Both the position numbers and the translations under genes were made by a program. Under the pieces are notes generated by a model that saw only the letters and a list, made by a program, of their open reading frames with translations, ran no database searches and was not told the origin of the DNA. A DNA stretch of 64,000 nucleotides, taken from Escherichia coli. GTDB lineage: Bacteria; Pseudomonadota; Gammaproteobacteria; Enterobacterales; Enterobacteriaceae. Shown here piece by piece: positions 3,043 to 31,278 of the stretch. The DNA lies in assembly GCF_003991155.1 (NCBI RefSeq), contig NZ_CP031293.1, one strand, 5' to 3'. Position 1 is the stretch's first letter; each line of letters opens with the position of its first letter.

Positions 3043-3051
3043 GCAATTCTC

Positions 3052-3597
<546 letters not shown>

Positions 3598-11182: not shown

Positions 11183-11185
11183 CAT

Positions 11186-12932: not shown

Positions 12933-13012
12933 TTTTTATATATTCCCTGTGGCAAATATTGCTAAACAATGCCCGGGGATTAATTTTTATTACTCACGGA
13001 AAGATTTAAATA

Positions 13013-13981: not shown

Positions 13982-14431
13982 ATGAAGAAAGCAACACTTG
14001 TGATTGGCGTTATTGGCGCGGACTGCCATGCAGTAGGCAATAAAGTTCTGGACCGCGTTTTTAGCAACCATGGCTTCAGAGTCATTAATCTGGGCGTAAT
14101 GGTCAGCCAGGACGAATATATTGATGCGGCCATTGAAACTGGCGCTGACGCGATTGTCGTCTCCTCTATCTATGGGCATGGCGATATCGACTGTCTGGGC
14201 ATGCGCGAACGCTGCATCGAGCGTGGACTGGGGGACATCCTGCTCTATGTGGGCGGTAACCTGGTGGTCGGAAAACATGACTTCGCTGACGTGGAAACCA
14301 AATTCAAAGAGATGGGATTTGATCGCGTCTTTGCCCCAAGTCATGACTTAGAAGATGTTTGTCAGCTGATGGCACACGATATCAACCAACGTCATGACGT
14401 TGATACTCGTATTCTTGAAGAGGCAATCTGA
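13982..14431 (+). CDS. glmS: Glutamate mutase sigma subunit (B12-binding, GlmS/MutS/MamA)
   Basis: ORF-track frame begins 13919; start set to [21 protein letters not shown] (AGGA SD 6 nt upstream). Strong resemblance to the Clostridium cochlearium GlmS B12-binding subunit (DxHxxG-type motif ...[10 protein letters not shown]...). Confidence 0.9.
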
Positions 14432-15819
14432 TGCAAATCGTCTCTGTCGATATTGGATCGACGTGGACCAAAGCAGCCCTCTTCGCCCGGGAGGGGGATG
14501 CGTTAACGTTGGTTAACCACGTACTGACCCCAACCACCACCCATCATCTGGCGAAGGGGTTTTTCTCCAGCCTGAACCTGGTGTTAAACGTAGATAATGC
14601 CCTCCCCCTGTTTAACAACGGTGAGGTTGCATTGAAGTATTCCTCCTCTGCCAAAGGTGGGCTGGCGGTTGCCGCAATGGGATTGGTGCCTTCTATCACC
14701 CTGGAAACCGCGAAAGTAACCGCTCACTCTGCGGGGGCTAAAATTGCGCAATATTACGCCTACAAGCTGAACCGCCGTGATATCCAGGCACTGGAAGAAA
14801 CGCAGCCCGATATTCTCTTGTTCACCGGCGGCACCGACGGCGGAGAAGAAAGCTACGGCCTGAATAACGCCCGTGTGCTGGCAGAATCCAAACTCGACTG
14901 CGCCATTATTTATGCCGGAAACCGGGATATTCAGGACGAGGTGCAGGAGATCCTAGGGCATAAAGACCTGACCATCGTCGACAACGTTCTGCCCGATCTT
15001 GACCATCCGAACCCTTTAGCTGCACGCCAGGCTATCTGCGACATATTCCTTAAACGCATCGTTAAAGGGAAAGGGCTGGATGTCGTTGTTGATAAAACAG
15101 GCGAAGAACCAATGCCGACACCGTGGACAGTCTTTGAACTGGTTAAGGCAATCAGTAATGTCGATCACAGCTGGAAAGAGTTCATGCTGATCGACATGGG
15201 TGGCGCAACCACCGATGTCTATTCCGCCTGTGCCAACACGCTCTCGCCCGACACCGTTTTACACGGCGTACCGGAACCCTTCGTGAAACGGACGGTGGAA
15301 GGCGATCTGGGAATGCGCGTCTCGGCAATGGTGGTTGGTGAAAGTGCGAAAGAGTTAGTCAATGTGAATTTTGCTCAGCAACCCGCACAGCTGGACGCTT
15401 TTTATCATTACCTCCGTCATCTAGTCGCTCATCCCGACTACTTACCCGCGAATGCAGAAGAAAAATATTTCGATACCGTCCTGGCCGGACTGTGTGTGGG
15501 TTATGCCACCGAAAGACATGCGGGCACCAAAAAAGAGGTCTGCACCTGCGTCGGCAATGTCGATTTACAGATGGGACGTGACCTGACAACCGTGCGTAAA
15601 GTCGTCGGATCCGGCGGATGGCTCTCGCGTGCCAGTCAGTTCGATATGCATCACTGGTTGAAATACCGCGAGTTAAACGACGACGGTAAACGCATTCTCT
15701 TACCGACCGAATTTGAATATTACCGCGATTCCCGGGGGCTATTACCACTGCTGGCAAACGTCGCCAGAGTCGATCCGCTGGCCGCCGCGCGCACCAGTAT
15801 TCAATGCTTAACCCTATAA
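14431..15819 (+). CDS. glmL: Glutamate mutase-associated protein GlmL/MutL (putative chaperone/reactivase)
   Basis: 462-aa ORF sandwiched between glmS and glmE as in clostridial glutamate mutase operons; ATGA start/stop overlap with glmS. Confidence 0.85.
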   Translation: MQIVSVDIGSTWTKAALFAREGDALTLVNHVLTPTTTHHLAKGFFSSLNLVLNVDNALPLFNNGEVALKYSSSAKGGLAVAAMGLVPSITLETAKVTAHSAGAKIAQYYAYKLNRRDIQALEETQPDILLFTGGTDGGEESYGLNNARVLAESKLDCAIIYAGNRDIQDEVQEILGHKDLTIVDNVLPDLDHPNPLAARQAICDIFLKRIVKGKGLDVVVDKTGEEPMPTPWTVFELVKAISNVDHSWKEFMLIDMGGATTDVYSACANTLSPDTVLHGVPEPFVKRTVEGDLGMRVSAMVVGESAKELVNVNFAQQPAQLDAFYHYLRHLVAHPDYLPANAEEKYFDTVLAGLCVGYATERHAGTKKEVCTCVGNVDLQMGRDLTTVRKVVGSGGWLSRASQFDMHHWLKYRELNDDGKRILLPTEFEYYRDSRGLLPLLANVARVDPLAAARTSIQCLTL

Positions 15820-15837
15820 CAATTAAGGCTGCAATCA

Positions 15838-17283
15838 ATGGAACTTCGAAATAAGAAATTAACCCATGACGAATTCATGACCGAGCGGCAACAGGTACTG
15901 AAAACCTGGGAAACCGGCAAGGATGTTGAAAACTTTGAAGATGGCGTTAAATACCAACAAACCATTCCTGAGCATAAACGCTTCTCTCTTGCCCTGCTGA
16001 AAGCAGACAAGGAAGGTAAAACTCTTAGCCAACCGCGCGCAGGCGTGGCGCTGATGGACGAACACATCGAACTACTGAAAACACTACAAGAAGAGTGCGA
16101 TCTGCTGCCGAGCACCATCGATGCATATACCCGTCTGAATCGGTACGAAGAAGCGGCTGTAGGGATTAAAAAATCCATCGAAGCCGGAACCTCTAAACTG
16201 AACGGTTTACCGGTCGTTAACCACGGCGTCGCAGCTTGCCGTCGCCTCACCGAAACTCTGCAAAAACCGCTACAGATCCGCCACGGCACGCCAGATGCGC
16301 GTCTGCTGGCTGAAATCTCGATGGCCAGCGGCTTTACCAGTTATGAAGGCGGCGGCATTTCCTACAATATTCCGTATGCCAAGCGCGTAACGCTGGAAAA
16401 ATCGATCCGCGACTGGCAGTACTGCGACCGTTTAATGGGGATGTATGAAGAACACGGGATCCGCATCAACCGCGAACCGTTTGGCCCACTAACGGGTACC
16501 CTGATCCCGCCGTTTATCTCGCACTCTATCGCGATAATCGAAGGCTTGCTGGCGCTGGAACAGGGTGTGAAATCTATCACCGTTGGTTATGGACAGGTCG
16601 GCAGCCTGACGCAGGATGTTGCGGCGATCCAGTCTCTGCGTGAACTTGCACACGAATATTTTCAGAGCTATGGCTATACCGACTATGAATTAAGTACCGT
16701 GTTTCACCAGTGGATGGGCGGCTTTCCGGAAGACGAATCGAAAGCGTTCGCTATTATCTCCTGGGGCGCAGCCGTCGCGGGGATGTCTGGTGCCACCAAA
16801 GTCATCACCAAAAGTCCGCACGAAGCCTGGGGCATCCCGACTGCCGCTGCCAACATTCAGGGGCTGAAAGCCTCCCGCCAGATGCTCAACATGGTCAACG
16901 AGCAGAAATTCCCGCCGTGCCCTGCGGTTGAACTGGAAATTGAACTGATTAAGAGCGAGGTTCGCGCGGTACTGAATAAAGTGTTCGAACTGGGTAATGG
17001 TGATATTGCGCGCGGTACGGTGCTGGCATTTGAAGCGGGCGTACTGGATGTGCCGTTTGCGCCAGCCGCCTGCAACGCGGGCAAAATTCTTCCGGTCCGT
17101 GACAACACCGGCGCGATACGCGTACTGGAAGCCGGAGCCGTTCCATTGCCAAAAGATATTCTCGACCTCCACCACGATTACGTTGCGGAACGCGCACGCT
17201 TTGAAGGACGCCAACCGACATTCCAGATGGTTGTAGATGACATCAATGCTGTATCCCACAGTAAATTAATAGGAAGACCATAA
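15838..17283 (+). CDS. glmE: Glutamate mutase epsilon (catalytic) subunit
   Basis: 481-aa ORF collinear with clostridial GlmE (MELRNKK..., ...SQPRAGVALMDEHIELL..., ...FHQWMGGFPEDESKAF..., ...FQMVVDDINAV...). Confidence 0.9.
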   Translation: MELRNKKLTHDEFMTERQQVLKTWETGKDVENFEDGVKYQQTIPEHKRFSLALLKADKEGKTLSQPRAGVALMDEHIELLKTLQEECDLLPSTIDAYTRLNRYEEAAVGIKKSIEAGTSKLNGLPVVNHGVAACRRLTETLQKPLQIRHGTPDARLLAEISMASGFTSYEGGGISYNIPYAKRVTLEKSIRDWQYCDRLMGMYEEHGIRINREPFGPLTGTLIPPFISHSIAIIEGLLALEQGVKSITVGYGQVGSLTQDVAAIQSLRELAHEYFQSYGYTDYELSTVFHQWMGGFPEDESKAFAIISWGAAVAGMSGATKVITKSPHEAWGIPTAAANIQGLKASRQMLNMVNEQKFPPCPAVELEIELIKSEVRAVLNKVFELGNGDIARGTVLAFEAGVLDVPFAPAACNAGKILPVRDNTGAIRVLEAGAVPLPKDILDLHHDYVAERARFEGRQPTFQMVVDDINAVSHSKLIGRP

Positions 17284-18524
17284 TGAAAATAAAACAGGCT
17301 CTGTTCACCGCTGGCTACTCCTCATTCTATTTCGATGACCAGCAGGCGATAAAAAACGGAGCGGGTCATGACGGCTTTTTTTATACCGGGGAGCCGGTAA
17401 CACAGGGGTTTAACGCCGTTCGTCAGGCCGGGGAGTGCGTATCAGTACAGTTGATTCTGGAAAACGGCTCGGTCGCCGTAGGTGACTGTGCTGCCGTACA
17501 GTATTCCGGGGCAGGTGGTCGCGATCCACTGTTCCTCGCTGAGCACTTTATTCCGTTCCTCAACGACCATATCAAGCCATTACTGGTAGGCCGCGATGTG
17601 GATGCTTTCCTGCCGAATGCCCGTTTCTTCGACAAATTGCGTATTGACGGCAACTTGCTGCATACCGCCGTGCGCTACGGATTATCACAGGCGCTGCTTG
17701 ATGCTACCGCGCTGGCAACCGGCCGTCTGAAAACTGAAGTAGTTTGCGATGAATGGCAGTTGCCACGCGTGGCGGAATCCATTCCATTATTTGGTCAGAG
17801 CGGGGACGATCGATATATCGCCGTCGATAAGATGATCCTTAAGGGCATCGACGTGCTGCCCCATGCACTGATTAATAACGTCGAAGAGAAACTGGGCTTT
17901 AAAGGTGAAAAACTGCGCGAATATGTCCGCTGGCTGTCGGATCGTATTCTGAGCAAGCGCACCAGCGCACGCTACCACCCTACCCTGCACATCGATGTAT
18001 ACGGCACTATCGGTCTGATCTTCGATATGGATCCGCTTCGCTGTGCGCAATACATCGCCAGCCTGGAAAAAGAAGCGCAAGGCCTGCCGCTCTACATTGA
18101 AGGGCCGGTCGATGCCGGTAACAAGCCCGATCAAATTCGCCTGCTGACCGCGATTACCAAAGAGCTGACGCGCCTCGGTTCCGGCGTGAAAATTGTGGCC
18201 GATGAATGGTGTAACACCTACCAGGATATTGTTGATTTCACTGATGCCGCCAGTTGTCACATGGTGCAAATCAAAACCCCGGATCTGGGCAGTATTCACA
18301 ACATCGTCGATGCGGTTCTTTACTGCAACAGCCACAGCATGGAAGCGTACCAGGGCGGCACCTGCAATGAAACTGATGTCAGTGCCCGCACCTGTGTCCA
18401 CGTCGCCCTTGCCGCTCGCCCTATGCGTATGCTGGTAAAGCCAGGGATGGGCTTTGACGAAGGCCTCGATATCGTCTTCAACGAAATGAATCGTACTATC
18501 GCGCTGTTGCAGGCTAAGGATTAA
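17283..18524 (+). CDS. mal: 3-Methylaspartate ammonia-lyase (beta-methylaspartase)
   Basis: 413-aa ORF highly similar by recall to the Clostridium tetanomorphum enzyme (MKI...FYFDDQ.AIK.GAGHDGF.YTG..., ...HMVQIKTPDLG..., ...CNET...); ATGA overlap with glmE. Confidence 0.9.
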   Translation: MKIKQALFTAGYSSFYFDDQQAIKNGAGHDGFFYTGEPVTQGFNAVRQAGECVSVQLILENGSVAVGDCAAVQYSGAGGRDPLFLAEHFIPFLNDHIKPLLVGRDVDAFLPNARFFDKLRIDGNLLHTAVRYGLSQALLDATALATGRLKTEVVCDEWQLPRVAESIPLFGQSGDDRYIAVDKMILKGIDVLPHALINNVEEKLGFKGEKLREYVRWLSDRILSKRTSARYHPTLHIDVYGTIGLIFDMDPLRCAQYIASLEKEAQGLPLYIEGPVDAGNKPDQIRLLTAITKELTRLGSGVKIVADEWCNTYQDIVDFTDAASCHMVQIKTPDLGSIHNIVDAVLYCNSHSMEAYQGGTCNETDVSARTCVHVALAARPMRMLVKPGMGFDEGLDIVFNEMNRTIALLQAKD

Positions 18525-18527
18525 CAA

Positions 18528-19898
18528 ATGGCTCGTTCTTTTAAAGTCTTATCGCCAACGGCAATCCTCGGGTATGGATTCCCGGAAGAGAGCTTCCGCA
18601 AAGCGATGGCAGAATCGCCCGATCTGATCGCCGTTGATGCAGGCTCTTCCGATCCTGGCCCCCACTACCTCGGAGCGGGCAAACCGTTTACCGATCGCGC
18701 AGGGGTCAAGCGCGATCTGCGCTATATGATCACCGCAGGCGTGCAAAATAATATACCGGTGGTGATCGGAACAGCTGGCGGTTCTGGTGCCGCACCACAC
18801 CTGGAGTGGTGCCGAGAAATAATTCATGAGATTGCCCGGGAAGAGCGACTCGTGTTCTCGATGGCGCTGATCCCGGCAGACGTTGACAAAGCCATCGTCC
18901 ACCAGGCGCTGGATAACGGCAAAATCACGGCGCTGGATTTTGTCCCGCCGTTAACCCACGACGCGATTGACGAAAGTACGTATATCGTTGCGCAAATGGG
19001 CATCGAACCCTTCCAGCGGGCGCTGAAAGAAGGCGCGCAAGTGGTGCTGGGCGGGCGCGCTTACGACCCGGCCTGCTTTGCTGCGCTCCCGATCATGCAA
19101 GGCTTTGATGAAGGTCTGGCGCTGCATTGTGGGAAAATCCTTGAATGCGCGGCAATCGCCGCAACGCCCGGCTCAGGCTCTGACTGTGCGATGGGCATCA
19201 TTGATGACAACGGCTTTACGCTGAAGACATTTAATCCGAAGCGTAAATTTACCGAAACGTCAGCGGCTGCACACACACTGTATGAGAAATCCGATCCCTA
19301 CTTCCTGCCTGGACCTGGCGGCGTGTTGAACCTGAAAGGCTGCACATTTAAAGCGGTCAATGACGGCGAAGTGTACGTCAGCGGTTCTAAGCATGAAGAA
19401 ACGCCGTATGCCCTGAAACTGGAAGGTGCGCGACGGGTGGGCTTCCGCTGTCTGACCATCGCAGGAACGCGCGACCCGATCATGATCGCCGGGATCGATA
19501 AAATCATCGATGAAGTCAAAACCAGCGTTTCACGTAACCTGTCGCTCGACGATGACAGCATTCGCATCAATTTCCACCTGTACGGCAAAAACGGGGTGAT
19601 GGGCGACCATGAACCGATGCAAACTGCCGGGCATGAGCTGGGGATTGTCCTTGATGTAGTTGCACCGACCCAGGAAATTGCCAATAGCGTTTGCTCGCTG
19701 GTGCGCTCTACCATGCTGCACTACGGCTATGAAAACCGCATCGCTACCGCAGGCAATCTGGCGTTCCCGTTCTCCCCTTCTGATATCCAGGGCGGGCCGG
19801 TATACGAATTTTCCATATATCACCTGATTGAAGCCAACGACGCTCTGCGTTTTGATTTCCATATTGAACAGGTGACGCCAGAAGGAGTTCAGGCATGA
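18528..19898 (+). CDS. Conserved hypothetical protein, 456 aa; family not confidently assigned (size and pairing reminiscent of AtuA-like DUF1446 proteins)
   Basis: ORF starting 3 nt after the mal stop with an AAGGA SD; no cofactor motif recognised by eye. The DUF1446 suggestion is from memory of domain architecture, not from alignment. Confidence 0.7.
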   Translation: MARSFKVLSPTAILGYGFPEESFRKAMAESPDLIAVDAGSSDPGPHYLGAGKPFTDRAGVKRDLRYMITAGVQNNIPVVIGTAGGSGAAPHLEWCREIIHEIAREERLVFSMALIPADVDKAIVHQALDNGKITALDFVPPLTHDAIDESTYIVAQMGIEPFQRALKEGAQVVLGGRAYDPACFAALPIMQGFDEGLALHCGKILECAAIAATPGSGSDCAMGIIDDNGFTLKTFNPKRKFTETSAAAHTLYEKSDPYFLPGPGGVLNLKGCTFKAVNDGEVYVSGSKHEETPYALKLEGARRVGFRCLTIAGTRDPIMIAGIDKIIDEVKTSVSRNLSLDDDSIRINFHLYGKNGVMGDHEPMQTAGHELGIVLDVVAPTQEIANSVCSLVRSTMLHYGYENRIATAGNLAFPFSPSDIQGGPVYEFSIYHLIEANDALRFDFHIEQVTPEGVQA

Positions 19899-20212
19899 AA
19901 CAGTCAATTGTCTCACTGGCGCAAGTCATTCGTTCGAAAAATGCCGGACCTTACGAACTGGTTTTAGATATTTTATTTAAAACGAAAGAAAACTATGAGC
20001 GAGTTAAATCATCAGGGCAATTAACCCCAGAACTGATTGCGCGCTTATATCATGTTGAACCTGACTTTATTCACCGTATTGTCTGGTTTGATCCTTCTAA
20101 CGCAGTAAAAATCGTCATGCCACGAGATATTATCTCCGGGAATGTAGGTGACAATGATGTCTATGGTGCACAGCAACATGCACCTTTATTAAATATGAGT
20201 TTCGATTTGTAA
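19895..20212 (+). CDS. Conserved hypothetical small protein, 105 aa (possible DUF4387-like partner of the preceding gene)
   Basis: ORF whose ATG overlaps the stop of the 456-aa gene (ATGA), implying translational coupling; no motifs recognised by eye. Confidence 0.6.
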   Translation: MKQSIVSLAQVIRSKNAGPYELVLDILFKTKENYERVKSSGQLTPELIARLYHVEPDFIHRIVWFDPSNAVKIVMPRDIISGNVGDNDVYGAQQHAPLLNMSFDL

Positions 20213-20295
20213 AAATCCGAATACTTTTAGCCAACTGACATCCCGTCACTTATTGCAGTTCAACACTTCAGCTATTTGTAAGGTTGTAATAGCAG

Positions 20296-20327
20296 GTAGA
20301 TGCCTGAATCTCTATTCAGGCATCTAC
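20296..20327 (+). other. Perfect 14-bp inverted repeat (gtagatgcctgaat-ctct-attcaggcatctac) in the 160-nt gap before the transporter gene; intra-operon terminator/attenuator or operator candidate
   Basis: Seen directly; followed by a T-rich tract (ttctcctgattctgattt). Confidence 0.4.
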
Positions 20328-20372
20328 TTCTCCTGATTCTGATTTATCGCCGTGCACCTGATGGAGGAAAAA

Positions 20373-21653
20373 ATGAAGAAAATAAGTTTAACCACGATGA
20401 TTCTTTTGGCGCTGGTACTTGGAATGATTATCGGCGTAGTGCTCAATAACACTGCTTCACCGGAAACCGCAAAACTCTATGCGCAAGAAATATCGATATT
20501 CACGACGATTTTCTTACGACTGATAAAAATGATTATCGCTCCGTTAGTGGTCTCTACCCTGGTGGTAGGTATAGCTAAAATGGGAGATGCCAAAGCCCTT
20601 GGTCGTATTTTTTCTAAAACACTCTTTTTATTTATTTGCGCCTCATTGCTGTCAATTGCCTTAGGCTTGATAACGGTAAATTTCTTCATGCCAGGCACAG
20701 GAATTAATTTTGTTGCACACGGTGCCGAAACCACCGGAGTGGTCGCGTCAGAACCCTTTACACTAAAAGTATTTATTTCGCATGCTTTCCCCACCAGCAT
20801 TGTCGATGCCATGGCACACAATGAAATTTTGCAAATCGTGGTGTTCTCAATTTTCCTCGGCTGTAGCCTGACGGCGATTGGTGAGAAAGGCAGCGCCATC
20901 GTTCACGCCTTAGATTCGCTGGCACATGCCATGTTAAAGCTCACTGGCTACGTCATGCTCTTCGCTCCCCTGACCGTATTCGCCGCTATTTCAGCATTGA
21001 TTGCTGAACGAGGACTGGCAGTTATGGTGAGCGCCGGGATCTTTATGGGTGAATTTTATTTCACCATGTTGTTACTTTGGGTGCTGCTTATCGGTCTGGC
21101 CATCGTTTATGTCGGCCCCTGCATCAGACGCCTGACCCGTGCCCTTTCGGAACCCGCCCTGCTGGCATTTACCACATCCAGTTCTGAAGCGGCTTTTCCG
21201 GGAACGCTTGAAAAACTGGAGCAATTTGGCGTTTCCCCCAAAATTGCCAGCTTTGTCTTACCCATTGGCTACTCATTTAATCTCGTTGGATCAATGGCCT
21301 ACTGCTCCTTCGCCACAGTTTTCATCGCCCAGGCCTGCAATATCCATTTATCCATCGGTGAGCAAATCACCATGCTGTTGATCCTGATGTTGACCTCGAA
21401 AGGAATGGCTGGCGTACCACGCGCCTCAATGGTGGTTATCGCCGCCACGCTCAACCAGTTCAATATTCCGGAAGCGGGGCTGATCTTGCTGATGGGCGTT
21501 GATCCGTTCCTTGATATGGGGCGTTCCGCGACAAACGTCATGAGCAACGCAATGGGCGCTGCGATGGTGAGTCGGTGGGAAGGCGAACATTTCGGCGAGG
21601 GCTGTCGGGGTAAAGCATTAAAACCCAATGAATCGAACGTTGCTCTGCCCTGA
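20373..21653 (+). CDS. Dicarboxylate/amino acid:cation symporter (DAACS family, GltP/GltT-like); putative glutamate or C4/C5-dicarboxylate uptake
   Basis: ORF-track frame begins 20352; start set to MKKISLTT with a GGAGG SD. Multi-TM protein with the family-typical layout; family call by overall resemblance to GltP/DctA-type carriers. Confidence 0.8.
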   Translation: MKKISLTTMILLALVLGMIIGVVLNNTASPETAKLYAQEISIFTTIFLRLIKMIIAPLVVSTLVVGIAKMGDAKALGRIFSKTLFLFICASLLSIALGLITVNFFMPGTGINFVAHGAETTGVVASEPFTLKVFISHAFPTSIVDAMAHNEILQIVVFSIFLGCSLTAIGEKGSAIVHALDSLAHAMLKLTGYVMLFAPLTVFAAISALIAERGLAVMVSAGIFMGEFYFTMLLLWVLLIGLAIVYVGPCIRRLTRALSEPALLAFTTSSSEAAFPGTLEKLEQFGVSPKIASFVLPIGYSFNLVGSMAYCSFATVFIAQACNIHLSIGEQITMLLILMLTSKGMAGVPRASMVVIAATLNQFNIPEAGLILLMGVDPFLDMGRSATNVMSNAMGAAMVSRWEGEHFGEGCRGKALKPNESNVALP

Positions 21654-21760
21654 GGGGGATCTTAAGCAATCAGAAGCCAATGACTACGCATTTTTATAAG
21701 CCGGATCATGAAGTTAGACGGCAATTAAGTAAAACTAACGTTTAAGGTGAAAAGTGAAAT

Positions 21761-23413
21761 ATGTCCAAACCATTTATCTGGCAAGAACCGTTTCTACAAA
21801 ATAAAGACGGTACAGAATATACATTAATTAGCGATCAACATATTACAGTAACGGAATTAGACGGCGAAGAAGTGATAAAAATCGCTCCTGAAGCATTAAC
21901 GCTGCTTGCCCGGCAGGCATTTTATGAAGCCTCTTTTTTCTTACGTTCCGCTCATTTGCAACAGGTCGCCAGCATTCTTAACGATCCGCACGCCAGTAGT
22001 AATGATAAATACGTTGCGTTGCAGTTATTACGTAATGCTGAAGTCTCAGCAAAAGGGGTATTACCCAACTGTCAGGATACCGGCACCGCAACTATTGTTG
22101 CCAGTAAAGGGCAACAGATATGGACCGGAGGTAACGACGCTGAAGCCTTAAGCAAAGGCATTTACACCACTTTTCAGGAAAATAATCTGCGCTTTTCACA
22201 AAATGCGCCACTGGATATGTATACCGAAGTCAATACGCAAACCAATCTACCGGCGCAGATTGATATCAGCGCCGTCGCTGGTGATGAGTACCATTTTCTC
22301 TGTATTAATAAAGGGGGCGGCTCTGCCAATAAAGCCGCGCTTTATCAGGAAACCAAATCCCTATTGCAACCAGAAAAACTGACCGCATTTTTAATCGAAA
22401 AAATGAAATCGCTGGGCACCGCTGCCTGCCCGCCTTACCACATCGCCTTTGTCGTCGGAGGGCTTTCAGCCGATCAAACCTTAAAAGTTGCCAAGCTGGC
22501 CTCAACGAAATATTACGACAATTTGCCCACCAGCGGAAACGAGCAAGGACAAGCATTCCGTGATATTGAGCTGGAAAAAGTATTGCTCGAGGCCAGTCAG
22601 CAATTTGGTATTGGTGCGCAATTTGGGGGTAAATATTTCGCTCATGATATTCGCGTCATTCGTCTGCCGCGTCACGGTGGCTCTTGCCCGATAGCTATGG
22701 CGCTCTCCTGTTCTGCGGATCGCAATATCAAAGCAAAAATTAACAAGCACGGTATCTGGCTGGAAAAACTCGAACACAATCCGGGGCAATATATTCCAGC
22801 CTCACTGCGGGAAGAAAATCACGCGCAACATGTACAGCTGGATCTAAACCGTCCGTTGCGTGACGTGATGCAGGATCTCGCCAGATTACCGGTAGGCACC
22901 CGCGTGTCGTTAAGTGGTCCCATCGTAGTGGCGCGCGATATCGCCCACGCCAAAATAAAAGCGCGGCTGGATAGCGGCGAACCGATGCCGGATTACCTGA
23001 AGCATCATATTGTCTATTACGCTGGCCCGGCGAAAACACCGGAGAACATGGCCTGCGGTTCACTGGGTCCAACCACGGGCGGTCGAATGGACGGTTATGT
23101 CGATACCTTCCAGGCGGCTGGCGGCAGTCTGGTGATGTTATCGAAAGGTAACCGCAGCCAGCAGGTCACCGATGCCTGTCACAAACATGGCGGCTTCAAT
23201 CTGGGGAGTATTGGCGGTGCAGCTGCGTTACTGGCGCAAGAATATGTCAAAAGTCTGCGTTGCCTGGAATACCCGGAGCTGGGTATGGAAGCGGTGTGGA
23301 TGATGGAAGTGGAAAATTTACCCGCATTCATCCTGGTAGATGATAAAGGCAATAATTTCTTTAGTCAGTTTGAGCAGCAACACCGCTGCGCCAGTTGCCC
23401 TGCGGGACATTAA
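21761..23413 (+). CDS. fumD: Class I (Fe-S) fumarate hydratase paralogue; probable mesaconase/fumarase FumD of the methylaspartate pathway
   Basis: 550-aa ORF with FumA/FumB-like length and sequence, located in the glm-mal operon. A class I fumarase paralogue encoded with glutamate mutase/methylaspartase in E. coli O157:H7 was reported to act as mesaconase; orthology here is inferred from context. Confidence 0.8.
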
Positions 23414-23422
23414 GGAAAATGA

Positions 23423-24025
23423 ATGGAAGCGCGAATTTCAACTGAACGGCATGTGCAGCGCCAGCAGAAATTGAAGGAACAGGTCGATACGCGCGTCGCG
23501 GCGGCGATAGAGAAAAAAGGGATTTTGATTGTTTTCACCGGCAACGGCAAAGGGAAATCCACTGCCGCGTTTGGTACTGTGACGCGCGCGGTGGGTCATG
23601 GCAAAACGGTGGGGGTTGCGCAGTACATCAAGGGGCAATGGGACAACGGCGAATACAACCTTCTCCAACCGCTGGGGGTTGAGTTTCATATTATGGGAAC
23701 CGGTTTTACCTGGGAGACACAGAACCGGCAAGCGGATATCGACGCGGCGAAAGAGGTCTGGTCGGAAAGCAAACGGATGCTGGCTGACAAGCGTTACGAC
23801 TTAGTGGTGCTTGATGAGCTGACCTATATGCTGGCTTACCATTATCTGGACACCGAAGAAGTGATCGCTTCTCTGCAAAACCGCCCGGCACAACAAAGTG
23901 TCATTGTCACCGGACGCGGTTGCCACAGTCAGATATTAAAAATGGCGGATACGGTCAGCGAAATCCGCCCCGTCAAACATGCTTTTGATAACGGCATTCA
24001 GGCGCAGCCGGGTATCGACTGGTAA
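23423..24025 (+). CDS. Corrinoid adenosyltransferase (CobA/BtuR family, cob(I)alamin adenosyltransferase)
   Basis: 200-aa ORF with P-loop GNGKGKSTAAFG and BtuR/CobA-like length; plausible supplier of adenosylcobalamin for glutamate mutase. Confidence 0.8.
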   Translation: MEARISTERHVQRQQKLKEQVDTRVAAAIEKKGILIVFTGNGKGKSTAAFGTVTRAVGHGKTVGVAQYIKGQWDNGEYNLLQPLGVEFHIMGTGFTWETQNRQADIDAAKEVWSESKRMLADKRYDLVVLDELTYMLAYHYLDTEEVIASLQNRPAQQSVIVTGRGCHSQILKMADTVSEIRPVKHAFDNGIQAQPGIDW

Positions 24026-24028
24026 TAA

Positions 24029-24056
24029 CTGCGCCTGGCATCCCGCCAGGCGCAGG
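24029..24056. terminator. Convergent terminator hairpin (ctgcgcctgg-N8-ccaggcgcag) between the cobA-like and LysR genes
   Basis: 10-bp perfect inverted repeat followed by gtttta on the plus strand; seen directly. Confidence 0.55.
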
Positions 24057-24058
24057 TT

Positions 24059-24964
24059 TTACATCTCCTGCGGTACGACCGATTTCGCCAGCAACCATTC
24101 ACGAAATTGCTGCAAGTGCGGTGAGTCAGACTTCTCTTCCTGCCACGTCATAATAAAACGATTACCGGTACGAATAGGCACATCACAGGGAATCACCATA
24201 TCGCCACTATCCAAATCATGTTGAATAGCGAACCGTGGTAACAGCGCCACGCCGAGATTAGAGCGCACGGCGGCAATCAGCATTGAAAGCAAATCGAAAC
24301 GTGGTCCGTTATTGACCAGCGGACTGCTAACGCCAGATAAAGCAAACCACTCTTCCCAGCCAGTAATACGGGTGCTTTGATGCAGAAGTGGTAACTCAGT
24401 AAGCAGTTCTGCCACTGACAGTTTTTGATCGGACATTGCAAGCAAACTGCCGCTGCATACCGGCAAAATCTCCTCATCAAAGAGATATTCTACTTCCGCC
24501 CAGGGCGCGCAAAAATTTTCGCGCATAATGACAGCATCGTACTCCCGATTAAGAAAATCGCCGTTATTAGCTAAAGAATGAATATTAACAATAATATCGG
24601 GATGTAACTTTGTGAATTCATGTAAATTTGGGATTAACCAGTGGGTACTAAAAGTAGGATTAACGGCAAGTTCAATAACCTGAACCGTAGGCTGCCAGGT
24701 CATAATGGTATTGGTATCGCGTTCCAGCTTATTTAATGTTTCTTTTACTATCCCCAGGTAATACTTCCCTGCATCATTAAGAAAAATGCGTTTTTTAGAG
24801 TGTGAAAATAACGGAGTACGTAAAAATTCCTCCAGCGCACTTACTTGTCTGAATACTGCACTTTGGGTTAACGCTAACTCCTCTGCCGCTCTGGTATAAC
24901 TTTCATGACGTGCGACGACCTCAAAAGTCACCAGCAGTTCCGTTTTAGGTATTTTTCCTCGCAT
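24059..24964 (-). CDS. LysR-family transcriptional regulator
   Basis: 301-aa ORF with N-terminal wHTH (...TFEVVARHESYTRAAEELALTQSAVFRQVSALEE...) and LysR substrate-binding-domain length; AGGGAAGG SD. Confidence 0.85.
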   Translation of the reverse strand: MRGKIPKTELLVTFEVVARHESYTRAAEELALTQSAVFRQVSALEEFLRTPLFSHSKKRIFLNDAGKYYLGIVKETLNKLERDTNTIMTWQPTVQVIELAVNPTFSTHWLIPNLHEFTKLHPDIIVNIHSLANNGDFLNREYDAVIMRENFCAPWAEVEYLFDEEILPVCSGSLLAMSDQKLSVAELLTELPLLHQSTRITGWEEWFALSGVSSPLVNNGPRFDLLSMLIAAVRSNLGVALLPRFAIQHDLDSGDMVIPCDVPIRTGNRFIMTWQEEKSDSPHLQQFREWLLAKSVVPQEM

Positions 24965-25234
24965 AATGCCTTCCCTTAAAAATAGTTGAAACTATCAAAA
25001 AACCATTACTTATTGCTAAGTAATGGCAACCAAAGCAGCAATCAATATTTTATAAAAATCATGTTCGATATTTATAACCTGGTAAGCCTGGCGTGACAAT
25101 TGTCTCAATCAGACAATAATAATCCGAAAAGCAAAACGCCCTTCGGATTATTATGATTCAAGTTAAGTGAAGATTATTAAATTGATAGCAATTATCATAT
25201 CTATGGATATTATGACAAACAATCAACAAAAATT

Positions 25235-26905
25235 TTATTTTTGATTTATAGCATATCCTTCTAAGAATTTTTGCGAAGCTGCAATATCTGGGGTAAAGAC
25301 CCGATCCTGGTCGACAAACGGCACGACTTTTCTGTATTCGGTAAACATTGCTTTGGTGGATTTCCCTAATGCCAGTTGTGGATCGGCCTGCAACCGTAAA
25401 TCGAGAGCCTGTGCGGAATGCATCAGTTCAATGCCATAAATCACGTTCAGATTATCGACAACCTGTTTCAATCTTCTGGCCGCGTGGTCATTATTGGCAC
25501 CGGTATCTTCTATACCTCCGGCAACCGGTTGAATATCGAAAGAAACCGGGTTAGCGAGATCGACATTTTCCGCATGCAGCGCAACAAACGGGATATGTAA
25601 TGAACCGAAGCCATGACCTTTATTACCTGCTGCCGACAGGAAGCGTGACAAACCGGTAAAGTGATCATCTTCAAGATGCAGCGAGCGGCGCATACTGTTA
25701 TGTGAAACATGCACTAACGCCACGGTCAGACGCTGGGTGGCAAGCGCAACCGGTAACGATTCGAAATTCGCCGTCGGGAAGATCCCACCGCTGATTGCCC
25801 CATCTTTAACAAAATATTGCGCGACCTGACTGGAGTCCTGATACGCTTTGTCTGCATTCAGCACGGTTGCCGGGTTGTCATCGGAACTGTTGATCTGCAC
25901 GGTAATGGTATCTTCAGCATCGCGCAACGCGCGCATTGCCTCAGAAATGGTATACACCGTCGTTCTGAACGATAACGGATCCTGCAATGCACGTTTGTCA
26001 TGCTTATGCCATAAATAAGAACCACTTAACGCATCGCGAATCTCTTTAGCGGAATCAGCCAACTGCGGGAAAGGACGCACGGCGATCGACTGCGGCAGTA
26101 CCGGCGCGACATTGCCATTCAACGCTTCCAGACTCATAGCGAAAACCACCGGGCTGACATTCAGCAACTGACGTGCCGAACGAACAGCTTCGATAGCGTA
26201 GGCTGTCCCGACGCTGTTGTTCGATAAAATCGCCAGCATATCTTTACCCTGCGGTACCAGTGGCTTAAGTCCCACTTTCGCCAGCGCGTCACCACCGCTC
26301 ATTTGCACGCCATTTACTCGGGCTTTCCATTCCCCCATCATCACCAGACCAACGTGCGAAGCGAGCATAATATCCGCTGCGCCGATACTTCCCCGCACCG
26401 GAATTAACGGTGTAACGCCGCGATTAATAAATTCGGCATACAACTCGGCAATATAAGGCTGTGCGCCGGTTTGCCCATGCAGCATGGTATTTAAACGTAA
26501 TACCATTGAAAGGCGTGCCAGATAATCCGGTAACATCGGACCAACGCCCGCAGAATGGGCGCGCAGCGCGGCAGCATTAAATTTTTTCGACGCGTCAATC
26601 ACCTCAGGCGTTAAATTTCCTTTGGCATCAAATATGGGCTGATCTTTATTTAGCCCCACGCCCACGGTTAAGCCATAAACAGGCGTACCTGAATGCGCGG
26701 CAGTCATCACCAGATCATAACTTTTTTCCATGCGCTCCATGGCGTTCGACGCGATTTTGACGCCGTTATCACCTAATGCAATTGACCAGGCCTGGTCAAT
26801 GGAAAGATGTTCGCCATCCAGCGTAATGGTTGATTTCGCCATCGCAATGGAGCAAACGCTCCAGAGCACAACGGTGACAGTGACTCTTCGTATCAATCCT
26901 TTCAT
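25235..26905 (-). CDS. Histidine ammonia-lyase (HAL/PAL) family protein with N-terminal signal peptide and apparently degenerate MIO motif
   Basis: 556-aa ORF. N-terminus MKGLIRRVTVTVVLWSVCSIAMA-KS looks like a Sec signal peptide; the rest aligns by eye with HutH (YGLTVGVG, ...PVRGSIGAADIMLASH...), but the canonical GASGDL (Ala-Ser-Gly MIO precursor) reads GAADIM. Confidence 0.7.
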   Translation of the reverse strand: MKGLIRRVTVTVVLWSVCSIAMAKSTITLDGEHLSIDQAWSIALGDNGVKIASNAMERMEKSYDLVMTAAHSGTPVYGLTVGVGLNKDQPIFDAKGNLTPEVIDASKKFNAAALRAHSAGVGPMLPDYLARLSMVLRLNTMLHGQTGAQPYIAELYAEFINRGVTPLIPVRGSIGAADIMLASHVGLVMMGEWKARVNGVQMSGGDALAKVGLKPLVPQGKDMLAILSNNSVGTAYAIEAVRSARQLLNVSPVVFAMSLEALNGNVAPVLPQSIAVRPFPQLADSAKEIRDALSGSYLWHKHDKRALQDPLSFRTTVYTISEAMRALRDAEDTITVQINSSDDNPATVLNADKAYQDSSQVAQYFVKDGAISGGIFPTANFESLPVALATQRLTVALVHVSHNSMRRSLHLEDDHFTGLSRFLSAAGNKGHGFGSLHIPFVALHAENVDLANPVSFDIQPVAGGIEDTGANNDHAARRLKQVVDNLNVIYGIELMHSAQALDLRLQADPQLALGKSTKAMFTEYRKVVPFVDQDRVFTPDIAASQKFLEGYAINQK

Positions 26906-26955
26906 TGTGTTTCCTTATCATGATGAGTTTAACAACGGGTTACTGCGACAACGTT

Positions 26956-27906
26956 TTAATTTGTTCTATCTGTTTTCCCCCGCCGGACAATACTGGTCAC
27001 CAGGCGAGCGGCAACTTTCGCAGTTAAATTATCGCGGTCCAGGTCCGGGTTAAGTTCGGCAATATCCGCAGCAATCAACTTCTCGCTACCGGCGATTAAA
27101 TTCACAATGGCTTCAGTAATATTTAACGGCACGCCTAACGGTGATGGAGCAGAAACACCGGGCGCCTGATAACCTGGTAAAACATCGAGACAAATCGTTA
27201 AATAAATGGCGTCACAAGCCTGAATATCTGCCGAGAGCGCATTAGCGATCTCATGCAAACCACGTTCAAATTGCAGAGATTCGTCCAGCCAATAACGCAC
27301 ACCGAGACAATCAGCGCGATCAAATAACGCCTGAGTATTGGCAAAACGACTTATTCCCAGCACGCGATAATGAAACGGTTTGCCATGCTGCGCGTTCCAC
27401 TCTTGCATCTGACGAAACGGCGTACCTGAATTGGCTTGTTCCGCCATCCGTAAATCAAAATGCGCGTCAAGGTTCACAATCAGTAACCGCTGAATATCCG
27501 GACGCGACTGCATAATCCCCTGAAATGTTCCCCACGCCACTTCATGACCGCCCCCCAGAACCACCGGTAAACTGCCGCGCGCAATGGCTGTAGATACGTT
27601 AGCCGCCAGACGATTTTGTGCGGATTCCAGCGCGTGGTCCTCGCTTTGTACATCGCCCATATCGAAAATAGCGCCTTCACAGAGCACTGGCATATTTCCC
27701 AACATGCTGCGCAACGCGCCCGGTCCGCCTGCTGCACCCGCTCGCCCATCATTACGTTGCACTCCGTCATCAACGGCAAAACCAATCAGCGTACAACCGC
27801 CGTGGCTTTGTTCACTAAACGGTTGCACATGCTGATGCCAGCGAGTGCTGATGCCGGTTTCCTGCGAGTCAACACGCCCACTCCACGGCAAAAATGTTTG
27901 CTTCAT
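26956..27906 (-). CDS. hutG: Formimidoylglutamase (arginase-family HutG)
   Basis: ORF-track frame extends to 27945; start set to MKQTFLPW, whose ATG overlaps the hutI stop by 1 nt. Arginase-fold motifs (GGGHEVAWG, NLDAHFDLR, DVLPGYQAPGVSAPSPLG) resemble Salmonella/Klebsiella HutG. Confidence 0.85.
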   Translation of the reverse strand: MKQTFLPWSGRVDSQETGISTRWHQHVQPFSEQSHGGCTLIGFAVDDGVQRNDGRAGAAGGPGALRSMLGNMPVLCEGAIFDMGDVQSEDHALESAQNRLAANVSTAIARGSLPVVLGGGHEVAWGTFQGIMQSRPDIQRLLIVNLDAHFDLRMAEQANSGTPFRQMQEWNAQHGKPFHYRVLGISRFANTQALFDRADCLGVRYWLDESLQFERGLHEIANALSADIQACDAIYLTICLDVLPGYQAPGVSAPSPLGVPLNITEAIVNLIAGSEKLIAADIAELNPDLDRDNLTAKVAARLVTSIVRRGKTDRTN

Positions 27907-29117
27907 TACCAACTCCTTTTTCCGCCGACAATAAGCCCCTGGCAAGGCTGATGCCCAAACCAGTAAGCCAGTTCACGTGGATGATTAAGATCCCAGACCG
28001 CCATATCCGCCCGTAATCCCGGTGCAAGTTCACCCCGGTCAATAAGTCCAAGTGCCTTTGCCGCATTACGCGTAACGCCCTGAACGGCTTCCAGCGGCGT
28101 CATGCGAAACAGCGTACAGGCCATATTGATCATCAATGGCAATGACATATTGGGAGACGTTCCGGGATTATGGTCCGTGGAGATAGCAATCGGCACACCT
28201 GCGGCCCGCAGAGCGACAATCGGCGGCAGATGGGTTTCGCGCAGGAAGTAATAAGCACCGGGAAGCAAAACCGCCACTGTTCCAGCCGCTTTCATGGCGG
28301 CGATCCCCGACTCGCTCAGGTACTCCAGATGATCGCAGGAGAGTGCAGAAAACGCCGCTGCCAGCGCCGCGCCTTGCTGGTCAGAAAGCTGTTCGGCATG
28401 CAGTTTTACAGGTAATCCATAGCTTTGCGCTTTACTGAAAACGCGCCGTACCTGCTCTGGAGTAAAGGCGATGTTTTCACAAAAAGCATCAACTGCATCA
28501 ATCAGCCCCTGTTCATGCAACACGCACATCCAGTCGCAAAGCGCCGTAATGTAATCATCACTGCGCCCGGCAAACTCTGGCGGCAGGCTGTGCGCCCCGA
28601 GAAACGTAGACTGAATATGTAACCCGGTAGATTGCTGCAAGCGGCGGATCACGCGTAAACAACGTGCTTCATCTTCCAGCGTTAAGCCATAACCCGATTT
28701 GATTTCAAGCGTACTGACGCCTTCACGTTGCCAGTTTCGCAGTCGCTGCGCCGCCAGTTCAAACAACTGTGTTTCGCTGGCTGCCCGCGTGGCATTAACC
28801 GTAGATAAGATCCCGCCGCCCGCTCTGGCGATATCTTCATAAGCCACGCCTTGCAACCGCATCTCAAACTCGTTCGCCCTCTGGCCGCCATACACCAGAT
28901 GTGTATGACAATCCACCAGACCGGGTGTCAGCAACTTACCCTGTAGATCGTGTTCCTCTGTAATATCAGCCGTCAGTTCACGGGGGATCTGCGTGGCCTT
29001 CCCAAGCCAGACAATCGAGTCACCACGGCTGATTAATGCCCCCTTTTCAATCACTCCCCAATCGTTAGCGGAAAGCGTCGCCAGCGTGGTATTTCGCCAG
29101 AGCGTTAATGCACTCAT
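27906..29117 (-). CDS. hutI: Imidazolonepropionase
   Basis: ORF-track frame extends to 29150; start set to MSALTLWRN (ATGA overlap with the hutD stop). Amidohydrolase motif DCHTHLVYGG and overall collinearity with HutI. Confidence 0.85.
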   Translation of the reverse strand: MSALTLWRNTTLATLSANDWGVIEKGALISRGDSIVWLGKATQIPRELTADITEEHDLQGKLLTPGLVDCHTHLVYGGQRANEFEMRLQGVAYEDIARAGGGILSTVNATRAASETQLFELAAQRLRNWQREGVSTLEIKSGYGLTLEDEARCLRVIRRLQQSTGLHIQSTFLGAHSLPPEFAGRSDDYITALCDWMCVLHEQGLIDAVDAFCENIAFTPEQVRRVFSKAQSYGLPVKLHAEQLSDQQGAALAAAFSALSCDHLEYLSESGIAAMKAAGTVAVLLPGAYYFLRETHLPPIVALRAAGVPIAISTDHNPGTSPNMSLPLMINMACTLFRMTPLEAVQGVTRNAAKALGLIDRGELAPGLRADMAVWDLNHPRELAYWFGHQPCQGLIVGGKRSW

Positions 29118-29704: not shown

Positions 29705-29705
29705 A

Positions 29706-31115: not shown

Positions 31116-31278
31116 GAAAAAGTCTCCTGCAAAATGAGAGGTCATTTTTTGAAACAGCAATAGAGGGTCGGGAGATATTTCTCTCGACGATGTAAAAATA
31201 TTTTTTGATAATTATTGTTATACAGGCGAATTATTCTCCGCCTGTATTAGCGCAAATATTAAATGACGGCGTTAATAT

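Follow-up and report, generated by a model that had tools for sequence, protein, structure and literature searches.

The window analyzed here is a stretch of 64,000 nucleotides of an Escherichia coli genome. Downstream of genes for a glutamate mutase it contains a gene for a FumA/FumB-like hydratase, which is followed by one for a corrinoid adenosyltransferase. This arrangement raises the question whether the two genes serve the breakdown of glutamate through methylaspartate, the first as mesaconase and the second as supplier of adenosylcobalamin (AdoCbl), or are additional copies of housekeeping functions. The features of the region are listed in Table 1.

Table 1. Genes and other features of the cluster, with the evidence used to name them.
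Feature	Position	Strand	Basis or remark
glmS, methylaspartate (glutamate) mutase B12-binding subunit S	13982..14431	+	NF002612 253 bits (cutoff 110), TIGR01501; start taken from the RefSeq annotation of an identical genome
glmL (mutL), glutamate mutase accessory/reactivating protein	14431..15819	+	NF040745 508.5 bits (cutoff 475); Pfam MutL 5e-139
glmE, glutamate mutase catalytic subunit E	15838..17283	+	TIGR01503 865 bits (cutoff 390)
mal, methylaspartate ammonia-lyase (methylaspartate to mesaconate and NH3)	17283..18524	+	TIGR01502 544 bits (cutoff 286)
AtuA-family (DUF1446) protein, CmlA equivalent by PDB depositor naming	18528..19898	+	Pfam AtuA; PDB 9ERQ/9EVF chain A
DUF4387 protein, CmlB equivalent by PDB depositor naming	19895..20212	+	Pfam DUF4387; PDB 9ERQ/9EVF chain B
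Strong hairpin between cmlB and the symporter gene; may act as a partial terminator or a processing site	20291..20331	+	MFE -25.6 kcal/mol, z = -4.7
Sodium:dicarboxylate symporter family transporter	20373..21653	+	Pfam SDF 2.3e-102
fumD, class I [4Fe-4S] mesaconase/fumarase (predicted: mesaconate to (S)-citramalate)	21761..23413	+	550 aa, ATG start; NF011921 and ECs_0757 identity
fumD stop overlapping the Shine-Dalgarno of the adenosyltransferase gene (TAAGGAA...ATG)	23411..23422	+	Read from the sequence
cobA/btuR-type ATP:cob(I)alamin adenosyltransferase paralogue (RefSeq 'cobO')	23423..24025	+	200 aa, ATG start; TIGR00708
G+C-rich hairpin terminator, common to the convergent cobA-type and LysR genes	24029..24055		11-bp stem, 9 G-C pairs, then GTTTTAC
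LysR-type regulator (GcvA-like)	24059..24964	-	NF008352 GcvA subfamily 221 bits, under cutoff 288

The initial annotation had described the first of the two products as a class I hydratase that agrees with the FumD of E. coli O157:H7, and had judged the agreement confirmatory rather than new. Both statements were borne out. The gene is an exact open reading frame, and its single chain carries the Pfam domains Fumerase (PF05681, 1.8e-74, residues 50-325) at the N-terminal and Fumerase_C (PF05683, 1.2e-78, residues 331-536) at the C-terminal side. The protein matched the NCBIfam equivalog NF011921 'class I fumarate hydratase' over its full length (1285.9 bits, cutoff 1060) but did not reach the cutoffs set for FumA (928 versus 1105) and for the FumB type (924 versus 1094). 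A gapless alignment with ECs_0757 of E. coli O157:H7 Sakai, which has the same length, showed that 543 of the 550 residues (99%) are identical; the seven differences (positions 76, 77, 136, 182, 243, 410 and 447) are conservative and leave all catalytic and signature positions untouched. ECs0757 is the locus tag of the purified FumD, whose gene was cloned from strain ATCC 700728 (Kronen & Berg 2015, PMC4682846, Table 2). That enzyme had a kcat/Km of 2e6 M-1 s-1 for mesaconate and of 7.5e5 M-1 s-1 for fumarate, a 2.7-fold preference for mesaconate; it is promiscuous and still a good fumarase (Vmax of fumarate hydration 671 U/mg), and its activity is oxygen-labile and Fe2+/thiol-reactivatable (PMC4682846). 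Judged by its sequence, the window hydratase is the FumD orthologue, a class I Fe-S hydratase. The finding is already known: the 2015 paper describes the cloning, purification and assay of FumD and also draws the adjacent CobA gene. Gene content alone thus changes nothing, and a literature search for follow-up studies on FumD returned only papers citing that work.

Residues C104, C223 and C317 of the hydratase align with C133, C252 and C346 of L. major FH-2 and with C105, C224 and C318 of FumA. In FH-2 these cysteines are the ligands of the [4Fe-4S] cluster, and the acid/base network and substrate-binding roles of its active-site residues have been described (bioRxiv 10.1101/2022.09.03.506457). 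All ten of the latter that were compared (Q134, D135, R173, G216, H334, R421, T467, T468, R471 and K491) are identical in the hydratase, as Q105, D106, R144, G187, H305, R392, T438, T439, R442 and K462. The E. coli enzymes FumA and FumB, to which the hydratase is 69% and 67% identical, agree with FumD in fold family, in length and in their three Cys ligands and catalytic residues. They differ in that FumD prefers mesaconate, which FumA and FumB hydrate with only 4% and 19%, respectively, of their own fumarate efficiency (PMC4682846). They also differ at a few positions: FumD has N183, A192-A193, G307 and G440 where FumA, FumB and FH-2 have A, T/A-Y, A and A. The resulting signature of A183N, Y193A, A307G and A440G lies beside catalytic residues; all 40 glm-linked enterobacterial fumarases carried it, whereas the 40 representatives of background class I fumarases all lacked it.

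In agreement with the claim that both genes belong to a glutamate mutase cluster, glmS, glmL, glmE and mal are located 3-8 kb upstream of fumD on the same strand. The hydratase gene had also been placed downstream of mal exactly where a mesaconase is needed. Strand and cluster are indeed shared, but the two genes are not adjacent, as cmlA, cmlB and the symporter gene, together with two non-coding gaps, lie between them. The proteins encoded by the first two of these matched chains A and B of PDB 9ERQ/9EVF, deposited as 'Citramalate lyase, subunit A (cmlA)' (E 2.8e-292, 456/456 residues) and 'Citramalate lyase, subunit B (cmlB)' (E 5.2e-57), and a structure prediction for the AtuA/DUF4387 pair gave a pLDDT of 83.6. 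This depositor naming, together with the Raoultella CmlAB enzyme used in a preprint (bioRxiv 10.64898/2026.01.16.699985), indicates that the pair is most likely CmlAB, a candidate citramalate lyase. A role of the pair as the missing lyase had been suspected before the match showed it to be in the PDB already under the name CmlAB; a literature search on DUF4387/DUF1446 yielded no functional information. The symporter, named 'GltP' by Kronen & Berg (Fig. 5, PMC4682846), scored under the NCBIfam cutoffs of both DctA and GltP. A LysR gene adjoins the cluster in most Enterobacterales loci. Upstream of glmS lie two low-GC hypothetical genes (11988-12932 and 13013-13435) for which no Pfam or PADLOC match was found. 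The island occupies the site between cydAB and sucABCD in the window strain and in Sakai alike, but the window strain is not O157-like at the cluster: a hut (histidine utilization) module adjoins it, and this module and an RtcB gene, both missing from Sakai, separate the LysR gene from sucD.

The explanation that best accounts for the whole, and which we consider very probable, is a nine-gene methylaspartate cluster in which FumD would be the mesaconase and the CobA-type enzyme the source of AdoCbl. It builds on the gene identities, on the near-identity of the hydratase to the assayed FumD and on the catalytic residues kept in both proteins, all of which were observed. The gene order is glmS-glmL-glmE-mal-cmlA-cmlB-symporter-fumD-cobA, with fumD and cobA last and a convergent LysR gene behind them, and the encoded route would lead from glutamate to pyruvate and acetate. 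GlmSE, which is AdoCbl-dependent and would be serviced by GlmL, would convert glutamate to methylaspartate, which Mal would deaminate to mesaconate; FumD, as an oxygen-labile [4Fe-4S] class I hydratase, would then add water to form (S)-citramalate, which CmlAB most likely cleaves. The island CobA-type enzyme, presumably expressed together with fumD, most likely converts imported cobalamin to AdoCbl for GlmSE. Since PDB entries now give the AtuA/DUF4387 pair the name citramalate lyase, the island appears to encode the complete route, which would close the gap left in 2015 concerning the fate of citramalate. For E. coli ATCC 700728, Kronen & Berg found no condition that led to expression of the cluster, growth on glutamate or methylaspartate ammonia-lyase activity (PMC4682846), and the in vivo function of the cluster in E. 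coli is therefore only predicted. A literature search for expression data by cluster locus tags (ECs0756/0757/0761/0762 and Z0893/Z0896) gave the 2015 paper only.

A separate matter is whether the nine genes form a single 'glutamate mutase operon'. The gap between cmlB and the symporter gene is ~160 nt, and that between the symporter gene and fumD 107 nt. The hairpin after cmlB (-25.6 kcal/mol) has a U-rich tail, and none of 200 shuffled sequences was equally stable. Hairpin and 107-nt gap would fit an independent transcription unit, consisting of fumD-cobA alone or with the symporter gene, that was recruited nearby. So would the arrangement in other genera: in Klebsiella, Citrobacter and Enterobacter the symporter gene and fumD are separated by an inserted glutaminase gene and REP-like repeats, and in Yersinia the fumD-cobA pair lies beyond the LysR gene at the opposite flank of the cluster and points the other way. 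Against this, the nine genes are all co-directional, the sole strong terminator is the one after cobA (MFE -28.1 kcal/mol, z = -5.7), and a consensus scan, which is weak evidence on transcript structure, revealed no sigma-70-like promoter in either internal gap. We regard recruitment of a separate unit as a tenable proposal, though not the favored one; it touches transcript structure only and leaves the functional assignment unchanged. No cobalamin riboswitch or other known RNA was found in the region 13000-25500. The gap between fumD and cobA is only 9 nt (23414-23422), and loci of Citrobacter, Klebsiella, Enterobacter, Buttiauxella and Salmonella keep a junction of TAAGGAG or TAAGGAA and ATG in which the two genes are 9-10 nt apart. 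This suggests that cobA is co-translated with fumD.

The presence, at this distance, of a CobA/BtuR-type adenosyltransferase with the P-loop GNGKGKSTAAFG had been noted before and was confirmed. The open reading frame matched TIGR00708 cobA (246.6 bits, cutoff 167.75), NF004637 (295.6 bits, cutoff 185) and Pfam CobA_CobO_BtuR (PF02572, 4.7e-64); like those of the hydratase, these scores are far above chance. The P-loop spans residues 40-51 and contains the modified motif GNGKGK(T/S)T in the form GNGKGKST (residues 40-47). The protein is identical at 200 of 200 residues to Sakai ECs_0756, is 67% identical to K-12 BtuR in a full-length alignment, and matches the structure of Salmonella CobA (PDB 1G5R) at 2.5e-88; the gene next to fumD is labelled "CobA" by Kronen & Berg (2015, Fig. 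5, PMC4682846). Residues N37, K39, K41, T43, F91, W93, E128, R161, H182 and D195 (CobA numbering) are all retained. The gene product is thus a member of the CobA/BtuR-type family with predicted adenosyltransferase activity. The nucleotide- and corrinoid-binding residues checked are kept in 35 of 35 cluster-linked orthologues of 60-100% identity, which points to purifying selection on the island enzyme. F95 and W97, the counterparts of CobA F91 and W93, are likewise conserved in all 35; in CobA this pair presumably displaces the lower ligand of the corrinoid (4HUT work). A search for experiments on the island adenosyltransferase found none in the searchable literature.

Other positions set the island copies apart. 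The derived residues C105A, L121Y, M123L and Y196W are common to all 35 cluster-linked adenosyltransferases, and CobA T42 is replaced by Ser in 29 of 29 island orthologues. Of the Arg9/Arg165 pair only R9 is retained: position 165 is Ser in the window protein and A, S, T or N throughout these 29. We take these two to be flavodoxin-docking residues, with Arg165 important for the flavodoxin-dependent activity of Salmonella CobA. Family membership stands because R165 lies outside the catalytic family definition, and the substitution bears on the reductant partner only. The island enzymes appear to form a clade without Arg165, and its loss suggests that they may use another reductant or pass AdoCbl directly to GlmS/GlmL. 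That the four-residue signature underlies the methyl-substrate preference of the FumD clade and that the island paralogue is a specialized adenosyltransferase is, taken as one proposal, doubtful. If true, the latter would be the first pathway-dedicated CobA-type adenosyltransferase, and residues responsible for mesaconate preference in class I fumarases would be useful in the engineering of C5-dicarboxylate pathways.

Among 5426 complete E. coli genomes, ~21% carry the island: the glm-cml part is present in 1121 and the fumD-cobA part likewise in 1121, while housekeeping btuR is present in 5422. Beyond E. coli, more than 40 Enterobacterales loci from dozens of species have fumD linked to glmSLE-mal, and fumD and cobA are adjacent in the same order in three different layouts (the Escherichia/Citrobacter/Klebsiella, Yersinia and Yokenella/ENT03 types). 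The Yersinia pair was considered as a possible housekeeping FumA/BtuR pair, overall identity being ambiguous for both its fumarase (70% to FumD versus 72-74% to FumA/B) and its adenosyltransferase (65-67% to the island copy versus 67-72% to BtuR); this was rejected, since by the derived residues they share both genes group with the cluster-linked clades. The island adenosyltransferase is missing from five genomes with fumD (Escherichia sp. E1V33, Pseudescherichia vulneris, Escherichia sp. ESNIH1, an Enterobacteriaceae MAG and E. whittamii; loci L008, L041, L059, L062 and L068), and in Morganella and Hafnia the cluster has neither fumD nor an adenosyltransferase gene within 10 kb. Corrin-biosynthesis-type genes adjoin the cluster in Yersinia and Morganella, and a Btu-like uptake system does so in ENT03. 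That other genera have B12 modules of different kinds next to the same cluster fits a role in cofactor supply.

The initial annotation went further and proposed that the island is self-sufficient for cofactor activation. E. coli must import corrinoid, and a CobA-type enzyme needs an external reductant. Together with the near-universal btuR and the relatives that have fumD but no island adenosyltransferase, this makes the proposal an overstatement. The same near-universality, which renders the island copy dispensable in principle, its absence from the five genomes and the replacement of Arg165 would also suit a redundant or decaying btuR duplicate that has no role with glutamate mutase, or one that serves another corrinoid function. 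We consider this improbable: the reading frame is intact, purifying selection is apparent from the binding residues, the protein is unchanged between the window strain and Sakai, the tight fumD-cobA junction is kept across genera, B12-related modules recur beside the cluster, and PduO (pdu) and EutT (eut) provide a precedent for pathway-dedicated adenosyltransferases. Less probable still is a reading in which FumD acts in the cell chiefly as a fourth fumarase isozyme (anaerobic C4-dicarboxylate/TCA), its placement by the glutamate mutase genes and sucABCD being incidental: its fumarate activity (671 U/mg, kcat/Km 7.5e5), its likeness to FumA and FumB with identical catalytic residues, the cydAB-sucABCD site and the failure to detect glutamate-pathway expression in E. 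coli (PMC4682846) speak for it, but its 2.7-fold higher efficiency on mesaconate, the conserved linkage to glmSLE-mal in three layouts, the four clade-specific substitutions absent from the 40 background fumarases and the equal counts of the two island parts in E. coli argue against it.

Read as a methylaspartate cluster with its own mesaconase and AdoCbl supply, the island can be compared with several known systems. The FumD locus of O157:H7 has the same arrangement, with the symporter gene upstream, the CobA-type gene 9 nt downstream and the convergent LysR gene. Salmonella CobA and E. coli BtuR (PDB 1G5R, 4HUT) have the P-loop, the F91/W93 pair and the acidic and basic catalytic residues in common with the island enzyme, which differs in being encoded by a second copy in a catabolic island. 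The pdu and eut operons each combine genes for a B12-dependent enzyme, for its reactivase and for an adenosyltransferase, a logic that resembles GlmSE, GlmL and the CobA-type enzyme here; PduO and EutT, however, belong to adenosyltransferase families structurally unrelated to the CobA type, and the island cluster encodes no PduS-like cobalamin reductase. In clostridial clusters of the type glmSE-mutL-mal-mesAB-citDEF the mesaconase is also a class I Fe-S hydratase (PMC4682846), and the first three chemical steps of the clostridial methylaspartate pathway equal those proposed for the island. The clostridial mesaconase consists of two subunits, whereas that of the island is a single, FumA-like chain, and citramalate is cleaved in clostridia by a citrate-lyase-type complex, for which the island would have the unrelated AtuA/DUF4387 pair.

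Direct reading of the junction placed the TAA stop codon of the hydratase gene, fumD, at 23411-23413, followed by GGAAAATGA and then by the ATG of the cobA-type gene at 23423, in agreement with the 9-nt spacer described in the initial annotation. The product of fumD was full length, as stated for the proposed FumA/FumB-like Fe-S hydratase; it contained both class I fumarase domains and aligned with NCBIfam equivalog NF011921 from end to end at 1285.9 bits, above the cutoff of 1060. It scored below the cutoffs of the NCBIfam FumA model (928 versus 1105) and FumB-type model (924 versus 1094). The second product scored above the cutoff of TIGR00708 cobA (246.6 bits; cutoff 167.75), matched Pfam CobA_CobO_BtuR and carried GNGKGKSTAAFG at residues 40-51, which upholds its assignment as a CobA/BtuR-type adenosyltransferase with a P-loop. 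The two-gene observation is therefore confirmed.

Features of the glutamate cluster and its surroundings, in window positions unless a locus in another genome is named
Feature	Position	Strand	Remark
tRNA array and CpoB/ybgF thermometer element	1386-2086; 3013-3151	-	seven tRNAs; Rfam RF02782, 142 bits
Low-GC hypothetical genes	11988-13435	+	two genes (314 and 140 aa), between cydA and glmS
glmS	starts 13982	+	first gene of co-directional array, then glmL, glmE
mal	17283-18524	+	after glmE
AtuA-family gene (cmlA)	18528-19898	+	after mal
DUF4387 gene (cmlB)	19895-20212	+	after AtuA-family gene
SDF symporter	20373-21653	+	between DUF4387 gene and fumD
fumD hydratase ORF	21761-23413	+	550 codons, ORF list
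cobA-type adenosyltransferase ORF	23423-24025	+	200 codons, ORF list
LysR gene	24059-24964	-	convergent, after cobA-type gene
hut module	25235-32976	-	adjoins the glutamate cluster
hut module	33734-35131	+	
B12-related flanking genes, ENT03	L046 1838-6418		
B12-related flanking genes, Yersinia	L045 4487-6172		
B12-related flanking genes, Morganella	L052 2288-6044		
Glutaminase gene between symporter and fumD	L017 14482-15483		
Glutaminase gene between symporter and fumD	L046 14316-15347		

The hydratase gene had been placed downstream of mal; it does lie there, but three genes separate the two. A 16-bp hairpin is present 3' of the DUF4387 gene (-25.6 kcal/mol, z = -4.7), the 107-nt gap before fumD is unstructured, and the one strong terminator of the array follows the cobA-type gene (-28.1 kcal/mol). 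An Rfam search of the region matched no family, cobalamin riboswitch included. The array may be transcribed as a single operon or as two or three separate units.

To compare this arrangement with that in other genomes, we scanned a genome collection with Mal and screened each of the 80 loci obtained with all window proteins. The gene order of the window was kept in Escherichia, Citrobacter, Klebsiella, Enterobacter, Lelliottia, Buttiauxella, Pluralibacter and Salmonella arizonae/diarizonae. In Yersinia, LysR-fumD-cobA flanks the cluster at its other end, in divergent orientation to glmS, and in Yokenella and Enterobacter sp. ENT03 the LysR gene is upstream and fumD-cobA downstream. The cobA-type gene directly follows fumD in all three layouts, and main-clade loci have a TAAGGAG ribosome-binding site, 9-10 nt ahead of the ATG, that overlaps the fumD stop codon; this adjacency and overlap support co-expression of the two genes. 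Klebsiella, Citrobacter, Enterobacter and ENT03 have a glutaminase gene between symporter and fumD; the gene is missing from E. coli, C. amalonaticus and S. arizonae, where REP-like repeats or a short remnant occupy its place.

The initial annotation had suggested that the island is self-sufficient for cofactor activation, and this is overstated. The housekeeping gene btuR is present in 5422 of the 5426 E. coli genomes, and fumD occurs without the adenosyltransferase in E. whittamii, Escherichia sp. E1V33, P. vulneris and two related genomes; the island adenosyltransferase is therefore an accessory second copy. A cofactor role for it is supported by the B12 modules that other genera place beside the cluster: a tetrapyrrole methylase, GHMP kinase, class I/II aminotransferase and CysG-like protein in Yersinia and Morganella, and a Btu-like uptake set (FecCD permease, ABC ATPase, TonB-dependent receptor and periplasmic binding protein) in ENT03. 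In Morganella, Hafnia and one other genome neither fumD nor a cobA-type gene was found within 10 kb of the cluster. The Morganella/Hafnia loci (L052, L051, L047 and others) contain glmSLE-mal-cmlAB-symporter, with no class I fumarase within 10 kb; Kronen & Berg described a fumarase as co-localised in all cluster-bearing enterobacteria (PMC4682846). These genera may rely on promiscuous FumA/FumB, or encode a mesaconase elsewhere. Fourteen E. coli genomes keep cluster fragments only, such as a 510-bp glmS remnant in O127:H6 (NZ_LT903847.1), a sign that the island has been lost secondarily.

The island adenosyltransferase is 67% identical to K-12 BtuR and matched Salmonella CobA (1G5R) at 2.5e-88. 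Residues N37, K39, K41, T43, F91, W93, E128, R161, H182 and D195 (CobA numbering) are kept, T42 and R165 are Ser and Y196 is Trp; this residue-level check gave no sign of a pseudogene. Judged by sequence, the cluster-linked adenosyltransferases form a distinct clade, all 35 of them carrying C105A, L121Y, M123L and Y196W relative to CobA/BtuR. R165, which matters for the flavodoxin-dependent activity of Salmonella CobA, is absent from all 29 main-clade island copies, so that these might, speculatively, use a different reductant partner.

The neighbouring hut module comprises hutU, a cytosine-permease-family transporter, hutD, hutI, hutG, a HAL/PAL/TAL lyase of 556 aa and an RtcB gene. O157:H7 Sakai lacks the module, which is present in only 144 of 5426 E. 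coli genomes and likewise adjoins the cluster in CE10. Since HutG yields glutamate, histidine may be fed into the methylaspartate route in hut-bearing strains. The text of PMC4682846 does not mention histidine, which apparently was thus not tried as an inducer in 2015. On the other flank, GC content is 0.34-0.38 over 11001-14000. The low-GC hypothetical genes there have conserved counterparts in Sakai (ECs_0767/0766) and CE10, had no match in Pfam or PADLOC, and are followed by a 550-nt AT-rich gap before glmS; in strain 2016C-3878 an IS1 is inserted in this cydA-glmS region. The tRNA array and thermometer element are ordinary core-genome content beside tol-pal.

The fate of citramalate was not established in 2015 (PMC4682846). 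The AtuA-family and DUF4387 proteins (18528-20212, +) match chains A and B of PDB 9ERQ/9EVF, deposited as 'Citramalate lyase, subunit A (cmlA)' and 'subunit B (cmlB)'; our literature search found no primary paper on this enzyme. The pair follows mal in loci of Proteobacteria, Acidobacteria, Aminicenantes and Bacillota, and in the Mal-locus screen its linkage to mal was tighter than that of fumD. RefSeq names the two 'acyclic terpene utilization AtuA family protein' and 'DUF4387', and in Sakai they are mis-annotated as 'methylaspartate ammonia-lyase' and 'acyl-CoA synthetase'.

FumD is 69% identical to K-12 FumA and 67% to FumB, and matched the structure of L. major class I fumarase FH-2 with an E value of 7e-211. 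The three Fe-S cluster cysteines (C104, C223 and C317) and all ten residues with which FH-2 binds malate or acts on it (roles from bioRxiv 10.1101/2022.09.03.506457) are identical in FumD. N183, A192-A193, G307 and G440 are common to all 40 enterobacterial fumarases linked to the cluster; the corresponding residues of FumA, FumB and FH-2 are A, T/A-Y, A and A. The Yersinia proteins carry this signature despite an overall identity slightly nearer to FumA/B. As background we used 150 representatives of 50%-identity clusters, of which 40 cover all four positions; none of these 40 had the full combination, and single signature residues were rare (N 1/98, A 4/99, G 4/98, G 1/86). Two of the signature positions are 4 and 6 residues away from G187, one is 2 residues away from H305, and one falls between T439 and R442. 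Beside catalytic residues, two Ala are thus replaced by Gly and one Tyr by Ala, which could open space for the extra methyl group.

The window is chromosomal DNA of E. coli. Its 2265-bp fumD-cobA segment was found in 1121 of 5426 complete E. coli genomes, with 100% identical copies in many of them, and the pair is annotated there as 'class I fumarate hydratase' and 'cobO'. This share (20.7%) is close to the 26.5% of E. coli estimated by Kronen & Berg to have the cluster (PMC4682846). The FumD that they purified is ECs0757, cloned from ATCC 700728; its kcat/Km is 2e6 M-1 s-1 with mesaconate and 7.5e5 with fumarate, and their Fig. 5 legend names its neighbour 'CobA, cob(I)alamin adenosyltransferase' and also the 'LTTR' (PMC4682846). 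FumD alone of the pair has been biochemically assayed. The initial annotation, accurate and essentially right in its interpretation, had called its finding confirmatory rather than new, and rightly so: the adenosyltransferase is identical to Sakai ECs_0756 (200/200) and the hydratase nearly so to ECs_0757 (543/550), in agreement with the FumD-type mesaconase of O157:H7, and both are therefore, as gene content, already known from PMC4682846.
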